Virus record (IMG/VR): IMGVR_UViG_2939127364_000001
Source of the DNA: a virus
Lineage: Duplodnaviria > Heunggongvirae > Uroviricota > Caudoviricetes
Strand: one strand, 5' to 3'
DNA length: 64,000 nucleotides
Shown one piece after another: positions 2,458 through 7,583 of this stretch. Position 1 is the first letter of the stretch. Each line of letters opens with the position of its first letter. The position numbers and the translations under genes were made by a program. Under the pieces are notes generated by a model. It saw nothing but the letters and a program-made list of their open reading frames with translations. It was not told the DNA's origin and searched no databases.

Positions 2458-3207
2458 TTAATTAGATAGGGGATCAATAAACCGCCGTGCTTCTTCCAGT
2501 TCTTCTGGAAAGTGGGCGGAAATAAGGCGCTCTGGAACGATTTCCATTAGCCAGATAGCGGAGAAAATTGCGCGTATGCGCTTGCTGCGAGGGATGGTGC
2601 GCAAACGCTCCAGAATCCACTCAAAATAGCTTTCCTGAATCGGGTTGAACTGCATGTCTCCCATATGCTTAAAGCTAACGAGAGAGTCATCCAGACGGGT
2701 TGTTGCGCGTCTGGCTAATTTCTCTTCGAATATCTCAATCAGCTCTGGCTGCCATAAATGCTGTGGGCGCGGCAGCTTGTCCCACAGCCGTCGTGCAGCT
2801 GCGGAAAGAACGGTGGAGATAAAGTAGTCGTATGAGCAGCAATAGCGATCCGCAAACTGGCGTGCTTTCCATAGCGACGTTTTGTTGGCAGTCGACAACT
2901 CCTGATAAGGCAGACGTTTTAACCCGGTGGTGAACGGAGCTGTTTCAAAGTGTTCGCGACCGTGCGTCAGCATGATATTTGAGTACTGACGTTTGTATGC
3001 CTCCGTAAAAAGACAGGTGGCCATGAGAGGATGCATGTCGCGGTAATCAAACCACTTCGTCTCGAAGAGTTCAGCCTCGTCTTTACAGCGCGACAAACCA
3101 ATGTTTTCAGCGACCCACTTGTCCATAACAGCGGTATTCCACTCTGTCATGAAGTCGTACTGGTCGTTGTCGATGGTATCGAAAAAGATTTGGCTCATGT
3201 GGCTCAC
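2458..3207 (-). CDS. Hypothetical protein (replication-module associated)
   Basis: 249-aa ORF; track start is GTG at 3207, an ATG at 3198 is an alternative. No recognisable motif. Confidence 0.5.
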   Translation of the reverse strand: MSHMSQIFFDTIDNDQYDFMTEWNTAVMDKWVAENIGLSRCKDEAELFETKWFDYRDMHPLMATCLFTEAYKRQYSNIMLTHGREHFETAPFTTGLKRLPYQELSTANKTSLWKARQFADRYCCSYDYFISTVLSAAARRLWDKLPRPQHLWQPELIEIFEEKLARRATTRLDDSLVSFKHMGDMQFNPIQESYFEWILERLRTIPRSKRIRAIFSAIWLMEIVPERLISAHFPEELEEARRFIDPLSN

Positions 3208-3214
3208 CTGGCAG

Positions 3215-3233
3215 GTAGTTACTTACTTATCAC
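3215..3233. promoter_or_regulatory. Motif B (TACTTA/TAAGTA family) upstream of the 2458..3207 gene
   Basis: gtagttacttacttatcac immediately upstream of the start codon. Confidence 0.3.
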
Positions 3234-3308
3234 AATGAGCGGATGATAGCGACTGGTGGCAGTTTTTGGAAGTGGAAACGGAAGGGAGTTGTTCTGGTGG
3301 TGTCTTTT

Positions 3309-3370
3309 AAAAGACCTGCTTCCGTATATATTTAATAAGTTACTTATTATTTATATATACAGAAACAGGC
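3309..3370. repeat. Palindromic AT-rich element, copy 1 (50 bp identical to 35954..36003)
   Basis: cctgcttccgtatatatttaataagttacttattatttatatatacagaa at 3315..3364 is identical to 35954..36003; the AT-rich core is itself near-palindromic. Confidence 0.6.
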
Positions 3371-3480
3371 ATAACTTGTCGTCTTAGACGCCCAGAAGCT
3401 CTACACTTTGAGCCTGTTAAATTGATTAAAAACTTATGTGTAAAATAGAACGCATTAGTCAGTAGCAAAGAGATGCAATA

Positions 3481-4248
3481 ATGGACGATTTATCGGTATA
3501 CGCGAGATCATTGGATAAGGCTAAATACTATGTTTACTGTCTCTATGATACAGAAGACAAGATGAAAAGACCGTTTTACATAGGAAAAGGCAAATCGACT
3601 CGTTGTCTCGATCACATCAAGTATCCCGATGACTCTCCCAAATCCATGCGGATCAAAGAACTTTTGGCTAATAAAAAATTAGGCATAGATATACTTCGTC
3701 ATGGTATGGATGAAACCACAGCCAAACTTGTTGAGGCGACATGCATCGACCTTATGGGGGTCGGAGAGCTTACGAATAAGGTACGAGGAAGTGGTTCCAT
3801 GATGGGCAGAATATCACTGGACGCCTACCATCACTTAGTGCTGCAAGAGGAAACTGAAATTGCTCCTGAGCACGCCGGTCTTGCCTTCCTGCTAAACAGC
3901 ACCTACAAGTCAGGAATGTCCGCTCTGGCATTATATGAAGCTACGCGTGGCGTATGGGCAAAGGTTCCAAGAGACGAGAATCTCAAATATGCCTACGCTA
4001 CATATGGTGGGCTGATAATGGAAGTTTATCAGATTGAATGCTGGGTCAAAGCCGGTTCTCAGCAGTACTTTACAAGGGATATAGCTCTTGGCCCCGACAC
4101 AAAACGTTATGAATTTGTTGGCAGAATAGCCGATGAGCATATTAGAAAACTGTATGTAGGCAAATTAATCAAGAAGCCACCAAGCTACGGTAGCCCTTTT
4201 GTGAAGGTTGGGGTGGTTAGGACTGAACATAGTGTTAGCGCGGCATAA
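3481..4248 (+). CDS. GIY-YIG domain nuclease (free-standing, possible homing endonuclease)
   Basis: 255 aa; N-terminus YVYCLYD-(10)-PFYIGKGKSTRCLDH matches the GIY...YIG...R signature; own transcription unit on the opposite strand to its neighbours. Confidence 0.6.
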   Translation: MDDLSVYARSLDKAKYYVYCLYDTEDKMKRPFYIGKGKSTRCLDHIKYPDDSPKSMRIKELLANKKLGIDILRHGMDETTAKLVEATCIDLMGVGELTNKVRGSGSMMGRISLDAYHHLVLQEETEIAPEHAGLAFLLNSTYKSGMSALALYEATRGVWAKVPRDENLKYAYATYGGLIMEVYQIECWVKAGSQQYFTRDIALGPDTKRYEFVGRIADEHIRKLYVGKLIKKPPSYGSPFVKVGVVRTEHSVSAA

Positions 4249-4264
4249 AGCTGACACTGTAGTT

Positions 4265-4302
4265 ATGCATTGGCGCAATGTACGCGCCAATGCATGATTT
4301 TT
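4265..4302 (+). terminator. Strong hairpin terminator at convergent junction
   Basis: 12-bp perfect stem atgcattggcgc / gcgccaatgcat with a 7-nt loop, followed by gattttt. Confidence 0.6.
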
Positions 4303-4660
4303 AACCTTTCTTCATCAACTCGCGTTTAATTTCATCGGTACGCATCGTGACATCGGCAGCAGTGATCGCCTCGTTCAGCTTCACGATGTCCTCGATTTCC
4401 TGCGGTGTCTTCTCCGCAAGATGGAAAATAGCAGCACGAATCACATCAGAGCGGGTGAATTTCTCAAAGCGAGGGATGAACTTCATCATCTCCAGCAGTT
4501 CGAAGTATTCGTCTTCCAGTGACATTGTGCGGCTTTTGATTTTCTCTTTGCCACGAGTCGGGCGTCCCTGTGGTCTGACTGGTTGGCGCAAAGGAGTTGT
4601 GTTCTTAGCCGGTGCATCAGGCTCTTTGCGCTTTGCTAGGTCTCCCATTCTCATGGACAT
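4301..4660 (-). CDS. Small partition partner protein (ParG/RHH-like centromere-binding candidate)
   Basis: 119 aa, basic N-terminus, immediately downstream of and overlapping parA by 1 nt. Confidence 0.45.
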   Translation of the reverse strand: MSMRMGDLAKRKEPDAPAKNTTPLRQPVRPQGRPTRGKEKIKSRTMSLEDEYFELLEMMKFIPRFEKFTRSDVIRAAIFHLAEKTPQEIEDIVKLNEAITAADVTMRTDEIKRELMKKG

Positions 4661-5325
4661 TATTCTTCCTCCAGACTCAAGATGTAATCTACAAACTCTT
4701 CGAACTCGGCTTCTGCCTTCTTATCGCGTTCAGCGCCAGTCATTTCAAAGATAGAACGACCTGCCTCTTCCGCATCGTCATAAACGTTACGGTTGTACAG
4801 GTTAACCGGCGCAGCCTCGATGCCGAAAGTTTCGACAATTTCCTTCGCGGCCAGAATACGTGATACCTGGGAAGGCAATGACGGACACTGGTTTATTACC
4901 GCGCGGATCTTAACTTTCTCGTTCACATTGCGAACGTTGTCGATAATCGGGTCGATATCACGCAGAGATTTCAAATCACGACGTTTAGGGCGCAGCGGGA
5001 TGATGATTACATCAGCCATAAGCATCGCCAGACGCTGAATTTCGGAGTCAAAGCCACCAGCATCTACCACTACAAACTCAGCTCTACCCTGAAGCGATTT
5101 TAGGTGCTTAATGATGTCATCCTGAACGTATGCAAAAGGAATCAGCTCAAGGTCTTCGTTCTGTCGACGGTCTTCACACCAGCTCGTTGTCGTGCGCTGA
5201 ATATCTATATCGGTAATATAAACCTTCTTCTTCTTTTTGACTTTCAGGCAAACGGCAATTTGCTGGGCAACGGTGGATTTGCCAGGCCCGCCCTTTGTGC
5301 CGCCAACCACAAAGATCTTGGTCAT
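4660..5325 (-). CDS. parA: ParA-family partition ATPase (small type Ib-like)
   Basis: 221 aa; deviant Walker A GGTKGGPGKST at the N-terminus; motif A 36 nt upstream. Confidence 0.75.
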   Translation of the reverse strand: MTKIFVVGGTKGGPGKSTVAQQIAVCLKVKKKKKVYITDIDIQRTTTSWCEDRRQNEDLELIPFAYVQDDIIKHLKSLQGRAEFVVVDAGGFDSEIQRLAMLMADVIIIPLRPKRRDLKSLRDIDPIIDNVRNVNEKVKIRAVINQCPSLPSQVSRILAAKEIVETFGIEAAPVNLYNRNVYDDAEEAGRSIFEMTGAERDKKAEAEFEEFVDYILSLEEE

Positions 5326-5604: not shown

Positions 5605-5913
5605 TTGATGGCCTTCCTACATCACGGCCATCAGGAGGAATACATGTCAGCACTAAAAAAGCAGCGCATCGATTTGAGATTAACCGATGACGATAAAAGC
5701 ATCATCGAGGAAGCTGCCGCAATGTCTAACCAGAGCATTACTCAGTTTATGGTTAGCAGTGCATCTGAACGTGCCGTGAAAGTTATAGAGCAACACCGTA
5801 GACTAGTTCTGAATGAAGAATCCTGGAATCTGGTTATGGACGCTATAAGCAATCCTCCGGCACCGAACGACAAGCTGAAACGAGCTGCTGATCGTCTGAA
5901 AAGCATGGAGTAG
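5605..5913 (+). CDS. DUF1778-type RHH antitoxin (AtaR/TacA-like)
   Basis: About 90-102 aa, ...KKQRIDLRLTDDDKSIIEEAA..., directly upstream of and 8 nt from a GNAT toxin-like gene; true start may be the internal ATG near 5644. Confidence 0.6.
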   Translation: MMAFLHHGHQEEYMSALKKQRIDLRLTDDDKSIIEEAAAMSNQSITQFMVSSASERAVKVIEQHRRLVLNEESWNLVMDAISNPPAPNDKLKRAADRLKSME

Positions 5914-5920
5914 TTTACTC

Positions 5921-6442
5921 GTGAGCAATACAACGATAGAGATTTTCTCTGGAGAGAAAGATTATGATCTAAACGGTTTTGATTGCGGCGAAGAGTCACT
6001 AAACGCCTTTTTAGCCAACCACTTAAAAAGGCAGCATGAGGGAAAAATTCTTCGTGCTTATGTGCTTTGCACTCAAGAAGAAAGGCCAAAAGTGTTAGGA
6101 TATTACACTTTGTCAGGTAGTTGTTTTGAAAAGGAGTCCTTACCTTCAAGAAGCAAACAAAAGAAGGTTCCTTATCGGAATGTTCCAAGTGTTACTTTGG
6201 GTAGGCTGGCTTTGGACAAGTCCCTTCAAGGTCAAGGATTTGGCTCAATGCTTGTAACACATGCAATGCGCGTTGTGTACAATGCATCTCTTGCTGTAGG
6301 CATTCATGGACTTTTCGTTGAGGCGTTAAATGACAAAGCCAAGGCGTTTTATAAAAGTTTAGACTTTATCCAGCTGGTTGGTAACAACGAGCGTTCTTTG
6401 TTCTATCCTACAAAATCTATCGAAAAATTGTTCGAAGAATAA
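5921..6442 (+). CDS. GNAT-family acetyltransferase toxin (AtaT/TacT-like)
   Basis: 173 aa, GTG start; GNAT core LGRLALDKSLQGQGFGSMLV; classic antitoxin-then-toxin arrangement. Confidence 0.65.
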   Translation: MSNTTIEIFSGEKDYDLNGFDCGEESLNAFLANHLKRQHEGKILRAYVLCTQEERPKVLGYYTLSGSCFEKESLPSRSKQKKVPYRNVPSVTLGRLALDKSLQGQGFGSMLVTHAMRVVYNASLAVGIHGLFVEALNDKAKAFYKSLDFIQLVGNNERSLFYPTKSIEKLFEE

Positions 6443-6445
6443 TGT

Positions 6446-6467
6446 GTTCCCCTCATTTGAGGGGAAC
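6446..6467. terminator. Bidirectional hairpin between convergent toxin gene and lysis-like cassette
   Basis: gttcccctc-attt-gaggggaac, perfect 9-bp stem. Confidence 0.4.
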
Positions 6468-6610
6468 TTCGACATCACCAACCACAAACCCTCTCTCCCA
6501 TCGTATTGTGAAAAAGGATTTGGCGTTCGGTTTCTTCAGTCATTACATCATTATTGCTGATATAGATAGGCTCAGCCCCATCGCAGAACAACACGCTGGT
6601 GGTTTGTGGT

Positions 6611-6862
6611 TTAATGACGCACCCACTTATCATACAACTCACGATGAACGGCAGAAGCATCTTTCTGACGTATTTTACTGCTCGTCTCATTCACCACTTT
6701 CACTGTGTTTTGAAGTCGTTTTCTGTCTTCCTGTTTTGCCTTCTCTTCCATTGCTCGTCGCGCCGCATTCCCGCCCATCGTGTAAGCGCCGACAAAAACG
6801 AAAAGAACGGCAGCCAGCGTAATCAAAGCAACTTTTAGCTTTGTCATCAGGCTGCCTAGCAT
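6611..6862 (-). CDS. Small membrane protein with N-terminal TM segment and charged coiled-coil tail (spanin/holin-like candidate)
   Basis: 83 aa; hydrophobic LKVALITLAAVLFVFVGAYT followed by KAKQEDRKRLQ. Confidence 0.4.
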   Translation of the reverse strand: MLGSLMTKLKVALITLAAVLFVFVGAYTMGGNAARRAMEEKAKQEDRKRLQNTVKVVNETSSKIRQKDASAVHRELYDKWVRH

Positions 6863-6863
6863 A

Positions 6864-7583
6864 TTAGACCATCCCTTTCTGGTGTCTTCTTACCTGCGAC
6901 CAGGCAATGAATCCGGCCACAACAATAGTGGCAATGCCGAAGATGATGCGTACTGTATCCCCGCTAGAGATATGACCTTGTGCCTTATCCATAGCAGCGG
7001 AAACCTGCGGCATAACATCGGCCAGCTGCGCCAGACCAATACCTGCTGTAACAGTTGCGCCTGCGGTTTCTTTAGTTACAGGAACAGCCTTCACGGTTTT
7101 CACCGGCTTAACAACGCCAGCTCGACGCAGACCTTCCTCAATAACTTCTGCCGCATACCAGGTGTTCAGCGTTTTTAGCGGGCCTCGGCCATTCTCGTGG
7201 CGAATGATTGCCTCAACCAAAGGTCGAAGGATGTCGTAATCATGCAGATCGATGATCATGTCTGCGGTTACACCAACGGCTTTAGACACCTCATTAATGT
7301 AGGCGTCAGTATTGTTTTCATTCGGCGGTGCCCAGCGTTCAATAACTTCACGAATGGTATCGATACTTGTGCCGTCTTTTGCGCGACGTTTATCGTGGTA
7401 GGTAATTAGAGTCACCGCCAGCGCACGAATCCCCCAAACAGGGTCTTTAAACGTGCAAAAGCGCGGTTCGTCTGGATTCGCAACCAGACCTTGCCACGGT
7501 GATCCTTTATCAAGATTACCGGGGTTATTATTACGAATGCCTCTCGGGGTCTTCATCCTTGATCTCCTGTTATTGCAGTCCAC
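6864..7583 (-). CDS. Hypothetical protein with C-terminal TM anchor (possible cell-wall-active or lysis protein; family not recognised)
   Basis: 239 aa; N-terminal RGIRNNNPGNLDKGSPWQG motif, C-terminal hydrophobic IIFGIATIVVAGFIAW; likely true start at internal ATG ~7556. Confidence 0.45.
   Translation of the reverse strand: MDCNNRRSRMKTPRGIRNNNPGNLDKGSPWQGLVANPDEPRFCTFKDPVWGIRALAVTLITYHDKRRAKDGTSIDTIREVIERWAPPNENNTDAYINEVSKAVGVTADMIIDLHDYDILRPLVEAIIRHENGRGPLKTLNTWYAAEVIEEGLRRAGVVKPVKTVKAVPVTKETAGATVTAGIGLAQLADVMPQVSAAMDKAQGHISSGDTVRIIFGIATIVVAGFIAWSQVRRHQKGMV

Follow-up and report, generated by a model that had tools for sequence, protein, structure and literature searches.

CMoRE, also known as PD-T4-3, is a type IV restriction endonuclease made of one protein. 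It cuts DNA in which 5-hydroxymethylcytosine (5hmC) or glucosyl-5hmC is present, and its crystal structures have been described (9U75, 9U7U; Liu et al. 2026, PMC12923530). The enzyme functions as a tetramer (a dimer of dimers), depends on Mg2+ or Mn2+, leaves DNA with cytosine or 5-methylcytosine uncut and protects E. coli from T2, T4 and T6 by direct defence (PMC12923530). PD-T4-3 was first found in a selection screen (reference 9 of the CMoRE paper), and the family members studied come from E. coli ECOR68, O157:H7 and APEC O1 and from K. pneumoniae (PMC12923530). In a native clinical isolate, E. coli NILS69, the family restricts T-even-like phages (10.1101/2024.12.20.629700). Here we analyse a gene at 3481..4248 (+) of a 64,000-nucleotide stretch of viral DNA (IMG/VR record IMGVR_UViG_2939127364_000001, Caudoviricetes; this whole stretch is hereafter called the window), and we conclude that its product is probably a divergent one-protein type IV restriction endonuclease of the PD-T4-3/CMoRE family, carried as defence cargo by an SSU5-like phage-plasmid.

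Two further kinds of described protein serve as points of comparison. PD-T4-3Capno (Rodriguez-Rodriguez et al. 2025, PMC12366544), from the distant host Capnocytophaga, is another member of this family and is still a modification-dependent nuclease: Mu DNA and the modified DNA of T4 are degraded, whereas unmodified T4-GT7 DNA is left intact. It is 48% identical to its cognate nuclease. Thus, the family function is retained across large sequence distances. PD-T4-3Capno differs in that it is reported to cut Mu DNA as well, which carries carbamoylmethyl-adenine (PMC12366544). The second kind comprises fusions of a PUA-like sensor (EVE, YTH or ASCH) to a nuclease, such as VcaM4I (EVE-HNH), and EVE-GIY-YIG fusions have been catalogued by Bell et al. 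2020 (PMC7641849). In contrast to these, the window protein has no EVE, YTH or ASCH match in Pfam at the sequence level.

Homology to CMoRE across two domains

The coding sequence (255 aa, ATG start, TAA stop; defined from the list of open reading frames and by homology) follows a ribosome-binding site, AAAGAG, at 3467-3472, 8 nt 5' of the ATG. Its product matches the PADLOC profile PD-T4-3 (PDLC04031) with E = 1.3e-23, residues 11-231 aligning to positions 11-238 of the 256 in the profile, so that both domains are covered. Against the sequences of the Protein Data Bank, phmmer returned matches to 9U7U/9U7Z and 9U75/9U8D only (E = 2e-15, residues 12-230). The E. coli reference CMoRE that we used has almost the same sequence as the 9U75 chain (573.6 bits across all 257 residues), and BLASTP against it gave 33% identity with E = 2e-20. 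The same picture emerged from structure: when the full AlphaFold2 model (predicted local distance difference test score, pLDDT, of 83) was searched with Foldseek, the top four matches were the PD-T4-3 entries 9u75_A, 9u75_D, 9u7u and 9u7z (probability 1.00, E = 1.6e-11), and GIY-YIG domains of UvrC ranked next. Homology of both domains is supported by sequence and by predicted fold.

Superposition of the whole protein on PD-T4-3 was poor despite this probability (template modelling score 0.37, root-mean-square deviation 17 Å), presumably because the predicted orientation of the two domains across a flexible linker differs. To get round this difficulty the C-terminal domain was modelled separately, and modelled alone it keeps the fold of the CMoRE sensor. 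Membership of the PD-T4-3/CMoRE family is well supported, and it is from this membership that we infer nuclease activity, the oligomeric state, exactly which modification is recognised and that the gene is expressed in the plasmid state. The family is large, with 1781 cluster representatives at E<=1e-3 and 632 at E<=1e-10, and a word-indexed search recovered 288 homologues of the window protein. A further CMoRE-like gene was looked for in the window and none was found.

The sequence-only reading of this DNA had described 3481..4248 as a free-standing GIY-YIG nuclease gene, from the motif YVYCLYD...PFYIGKGKSTR near the N-terminus of its product, and had left the C-terminal ~150 aa unassigned. 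The motif is indeed there, and the nuclease assignment was borne out by Pfam, in which PF22945 (LEM-3_GIY-YIG) matches residues 32-104 at 30.1 bits (cut-off 27; E = 5.5e-7). RefSeq names the protein 'LEM-3-like GIY-YIG domain-containing protein', and a scan of it with NCBIfam gave no match. The unassigned C-terminal region is real and can now be given an identity, that of the CMoRE modified-base sensor domain.

From N- to C-terminus, the protein can be divided into three parts. The N-terminal region (3481..3759, +) carries the GIYxY-YIG signature Y17, Y19 and Y33, together with R41 and E85 of the active site, and is supported by PF22945, by conservation and by the UvrC matches. It is followed by a flexible inter-domain linker, residues 94-106 (3760..3798, +), where pLDDT falls below 50; the linker is disordered in the CMoRE crystals as well (PMC12923530). 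Residues 107-247 (3799..4221, +) form the modification-sensing domain at the C-terminus. CMoRE has the same architecture in the same order, likewise encoded by a single gene of about 255 codons on a mobile element. The carriers differ: here it is a slot in an SSU5-like phage-plasmid, whereas CMoRE lies in an integrated prophage (the canonical E. coli copy that we examined comes from a plasmid record, where it sits in a prophage-like region beside a type II restriction-modification pair).

To compare individual residues, we used 55 homologues and a family alignment of 214 members, made up of the window protein, 212 relatives and the E. coli reference CMoRE. Y17, Y19 and Y31 of CMoRE align with Y17, Y19 and Y33 here, the extra tyrosine giving the GIYxY-YIG signature; in the window protein the motifs read Y17-V18-Y19 and F32-Y33-I34-G35, and each of the three columns holds tyrosine in 211-212 of the 214 members. 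The loop between beta1 and beta2 is 2 residues longer than in CMoRE. The catalytic arginine and glutamate are also kept, as R41 (R39 in CMoRE) and E85 (E93 in CMoRE). R41, E85 and N99 are invariant in the 55 homologues, and the full set Y17, Y19, Y33, R41, H45, E85 and N99 is either invariant there or at least 97% conserved in the larger alignment; N99 falls in the linker, just past the GIY-YIG domain. At the interface positions, V92 of CMoRE (intra-dimer) is retained as V84, and L96 is replaced by C88.

The gene is under purifying selection. The ratio of nonsynonymous to synonymous substitution rates (dN/dS) is 0.09 against the copy in PhiR41_1, a value that comes from very few changes; against distant homologues dS is saturated (dN 0.16-0.38) and no ratio could be obtained.

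Several observations weigh against our conclusion. Pairwise identity to the biochemically studied enzymes is only 32-33%. The loop after helix 2 (residues 46-57, IKYPDDSPKSMR, at 3616..3651, +, between H45 and I58), which occupies the position of the acidic autoinhibitory loop of CMoRE, has 12 residues and two acidic ones (DD) where CMoRE has 20 residues and DDDE. In CMoRE this acidic lid of 15 residues is said to be autoinhibitory, mutation of DDDE to alanine makes the enzyme toxic, and 'most' members have the loop (PMC12923530); with a shortened lid, self-protection and perhaps substrate range may differ. Y127 of CMoRE, which contacts 5hmC through a main-chain oxygen, aligns with a variable column (V120 here), so that specificity cannot be read from the sequence. 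Chromosomal homologues stand isolated among housekeeping genes, with no obvious defence islands around them. Finally, a promoter scan of 3150-4350 gave no consensus promoter.

Some of these points feed the most serious competitor, which we nevertheless regard as rather improbable: an enzyme of the same type IV family with a target spectrum or control unlike that of CMoRE, directed for instance at Mom-type carbamoylmethyl-adenine or arabinosyl-hmC, and belonging to a short-loop subfamily that has no acidic safety-catch. In fact, the 12-residue loop, 8 residues shorter than in CMoRE and with no run of four acidic residues, is the commonest form, being present in 170 of the 214 relatives sampled. 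The window protein and CMoRE share only ~32% identity, the position of the sensor contact is variable, CMoRE itself shows graded activity on arabinosylated hmC, and the Capnocytophaga member cuts Mu DNA with its modified adenine (PMC12366544). On the other hand, the sensor domain has kept its fold, every family member tested so far restricts T-even phages, and our analysis yielded no positive evidence for a different specificity.

We propose a mechanism for the window protein as a CMoRE-type enzyme, by extension from its characterised relatives. The C-terminal domain of ~140 aa would bind a hypermodified base in incoming phage DNA, which in the studied enzymes is 5-hydroxymethyl- or glucosyl-hydroxymethyl-cytosine. 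Acting as an oligomer, the protein would read two modified sites, and the N-terminal GIY-YIG domain (Y17/Y19/Y33, R41, E85, N99) would then cut both strands. DNA of T-even-type phages would in this way be destroyed directly, the host would not be killed, and unmodified DNA of the host and of the phage-plasmid would be spared. As to how the base is held, the authors of CMoRE reported no structural homologue and a base bound at the edge of the domain, not in a pocket; we have a hint that this 'novel' sensor fold is PUA-like. The short-loop subfamily could inform how such enzymes avoid self-cleavage, and might be a source of enzymes for 5hmC mapping whose properties differ.

A variable slot in SSU5-like phage-plasmids

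The 3-kb region around the gene is 96-97% identical to that of the SSU5-like Escherichia phages CMS-2020a and PhiR41_1, and because of this match we regard the window as part of an SSU5-group phage-plasmid. Phage Cyrano and Salmonella phage SSU5 match over the flanks only. When seven relatives were compared, homology was found to break at 3369-3370 in six and at 3379 in one, which is the right end of a palindrome, and to resume at 4297-4303, which is the stop codon of a small gene upstream of parA. Between these sharp borders lies a cassette, 3370-4302, with a single gene, 3481..4248. As the sequence-only reading had supposed, this is an inserted unit; it is accessory, in that some relatives have it and others lack it.

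What relatives carry at this place is instructive (the comparison loci bear L numbers). Cronobacter pH322_1 has PD-T7-5 (E = 5.5e-138; L007 1509-2672, -). Genes of two candidate systems are found as well, namely DUF2971/PDC-S31 in Cyrano, SSU5 and Enterobacter plasmids (L002 3993-4796, L003 3997-4755 and L008 1498-2256, all -) and a KAP NTPase/PDC-S49 in plasmid P2 of E. coli isolate 162 (L006 1478-3172, -). The Shigella sonnei FDAARGOS_524 plasmid encodes a 225-aa protein, phrog_1353 (L004 1672-2349, +), and E. coli pHH107-1 a 352-aa protein, phrog_22329 (L005 1589-2647, +); neither has a match in Pfam, PADLOC or NCBIfam, and by their position both are candidates for unrecognised anti-phage genes. 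In SSU5 the slot also contains three more small open reading frames (L003 4865-6201). Truly empty slots, in which the flanks lie ~35 nt apart, were detected with a synthetic empty-site query in 5 of 666 plasmids. Examples are the E. coli GTEN_23 plasmid unnamed2 (L017) and the Salmonella Derby plasmid AnCo3 (L018), at ~600-640. Their spacer starts like the DUF2971 cassette of the SSU5 and Enterobacter elements, and this resemblance suggests that the empty alleles arose by deletion of that cassette.

We regard the locus as a variable slot that swaps defence-type genes, and not as a homing site. The sequence-only reading had taken the unit for a homing-endonuclease-like insertion, that is, a free-standing enzyme of the Seg or I-TevI kind that would cut alleles devoid of the gene and spread by recombinational repair. 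Several features invite this explanation: the protein has a GIY-YIG domain at its N-terminus and is encoded by a small stand-alone gene, as are SegA-E of T4 and I-TevI; the gene is polymorphic in presence and runs opposite to its neighbours; the few empty alleles are potential targets; and homologues of ~28% identity in jumbo phages are labelled 'homing nuclease' by depositors. However, the whole protein is homologous to PD-T4-3/CMoRE, and no NUMOD, IENR1 or helix-turn-helix module was matched in its C-terminal part by Pfam at E<=1. Its C-terminal fold differs from that of SegA-E and I-TevI, and it has the extra tyrosine of GIYxY. Those enzymes drive their own inheritance, whereas relatives of the window protein defend cells: characterised members cleave modified DNA, are not strictly limited to particular sequences and act against T-even phages. 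Moreover, the alternative alleles are mostly filled with other defence or candidate-defence genes, and homologues of 73-79% identity occur in unrelated plasmid and chromosomal contexts, with DNA similarity limited to the coding sequence. We reject the homing explanation, which we now think very improbable, on domain content, on family function and on the nature of the alternative alleles.

Least probable of all is a housekeeping role, in which the phage-plasmid would use the nuclease for its own replication, partition or repair or to degrade host DNA in lytic growth, as its place between replication genes (a DnaB-like helicase and phrog_2500) and parA could suggest: the gene is absent from SSU5, from Cyrano and from ~58% of the E. 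coli elements that share the backbone, its family has a documented role in defence, and because unrelated genes replace 3481..4248 in relatives it is not a core function.

In the best explanation, the cassette is an exchangeable cargo that would guard the host and the plasmid against phages whose DNA is hypermodified. By analogy, the slot recalls the defence hotspots of P2 and P4, where unrelated small defence systems interchange at a fixed site between backbone genes; it differs from them in residing on an extrachromosomal SSU5-like phage-plasmid, between replication and partition modules, with a palindrome at its left edge. We tentatively envision a broader scenario, which taken as a whole may well prove wrong. 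In this scenario the interval from the palindrome to the stop codon would serve SSU5-like phage-plasmids as a site dedicated to the exchange of defence genes, in analogy with the P2/P4 hotspots; if so, the phrog_1353 and phrog_22329 occupants would be new anti-phage genes; and the short-loop CMoRE variant would work without the acidic safety-catch, through a cryptic PUA-like (EVE/YTH/ASCH) sensor and perhaps with a modification spectrum of its own.

How widespread is this cargo? Among 5426 complete E. coli genomes, the cassette was present in 105, at 98-100% identity and always on a plasmid, and the backbone flank in 246-258. From these counts, ~40% of the E. coli elements with the backbone carry the cassette, and with it a nuclease predicted to destroy T-even-type phages, whose DNA is hydroxymethylated or glucosylated. 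E. coli, Shigella, Salmonella and Klebsiella commonly harbour SSU5-like phage-plasmids. A 2025 preprint based on a DefenseFinder survey lists PD-T4-3 in the clade J SSU5-group phage-plasmids of E. coli and Shigella, and finds the four main phage-plasmid groups together in 9% of E. coli/Shigella surveillance genomes. That PADLOC recognises the protein, and that PD-T4-3 occurs in SSU5-group phage-plasmids, is thus already known; the short-loop subfamily and the sharply bounded slot with its two uncharacterised occupants go slightly beyond the literature. These occupants are cheap candidates for new defence genes. The cargo bears on host range in phage therapy, and provides a case of a temperate element that would shield its host from virulent competitors.

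Outside this group of elements, homologues of 73-79% identity are found on unrelated plasmids and on chromosomes of Leclercia, Serratia, Salmonella and Providencia, where they stand alone in varied contexts with no partner gene. In the plasmid copies that we examined (76% protein identity), DNA similarity is confined to the coding sequence. The idea that promoter region, gene and hairpin travel together as one mobile cassette was rejected, since other plasmids share the coding sequence only.

Jumbo phages that infect Serratia and Pectobacterium also encode two-domain homologues (residues 10-236 align at ~25-30% identity; an example is 6439-7125 of Serratia phage Moabite), with shorter matches in jumbo phages of Klebsiella, Pseudomonas and Pantoea. 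Depositors label the jumbo-phage homologues GIY-YIG or homing endonucleases; they may instead be modification-dependent nucleases directed against competing phages.

Borders of the cassette and neighbouring genes

At the left border of the slot, outside the cassette, lies an AT-rich imperfect palindrome of ~55 bp (3315..3369, no strand assigned), 112 nt upstream of the ATG at 3481. The repeat finder places its arms at 3315-3331 and 3353-3369 and a further, nested pair at 3325-3340/3342-3357, and the arm sequences are CCTGCTTCCG and CAGAA[A/G]CAGG. Folded as a single strand it reaches -16.6 kcal/mol (z = -3.9). The sequence-only reading had seen this element, at 50 bp, and had counted it as part of the inserted unit. 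The palindrome itself is confirmed, but it belongs to the phage-plasmid backbone, because all eight related SSU5-like elements that were compared have kept it, whichever gene fills the slot. It may act in the replication module as an operator or as an origin element, or serve as a site of cargo exchange. An Rfam scan of 3150-4400 gave a single match, also on the palindrome, which resembles a miRNA and is attributable to chance (E = 0.59; 21 bits, where the gathering score is 81).

The cassette-specific upstream region, 3370..3480 (+), begins where backbone homology to relatives stops (3369-3379), and includes a -10-like TAAAAT at 3441-3446 that we noticed by eye. Downstream of the gene, inside the cassette, the 12-bp stem that the sequence-only reading had noted as a terminator is real, and belongs to a terminator-like hairpin followed by a U5 tract (4261..4302, +; repeat finder and folding). 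The repeat finder gives a perfect 12-bp stem at 4265-4276/4284-4295 with a 7-nt loop, this core being followed on its 3' side by GATTTTTA. The stem extends to 16 bp (4261-4299), with a folding energy of -25.1 kcal/mol (z = -5.4), and none of 200 shuffled sequences folded as well. A simple terminator scan of 3150-4350 did not list the hairpin, which is evident from the repeat finder and from folding.

The genes on either side, 2458..3207 (-) and 4301..4660 (-), both run opposite to 3481..4248, and the gene does lie between replication genes and parA, so that its orientation and location are as originally described. The left neighbour is a phrog_2500 gene that adjoins the DnaB-like helicase gene. 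The right neighbour, 4301..4660 (-), is a small backbone gene upstream of parA (phrog_5111, 119 aa), whose stop codon forms the right border of the slot. It overlaps parA (4660..5325), and this overlap and its position suggest a small partition adaptor. In phage Cyrano its counterpart is labelled 'RelE/ParE putative toxin'; the window gene has no such Pfam match, and the label is probably wrong.

Just past parA, the window encodes a DUF1778-type antitoxin (5605-5913, +) and a GNAT acetyltransferase toxin (5921-6442, +), a pair that is KacAT-like according to annotations in phage Cyrano and in the S. sonnei plasmid. PhiR41_1 and SSU5 hold other genes at this place, and 5605-6442 may thus be a second variable cargo position.
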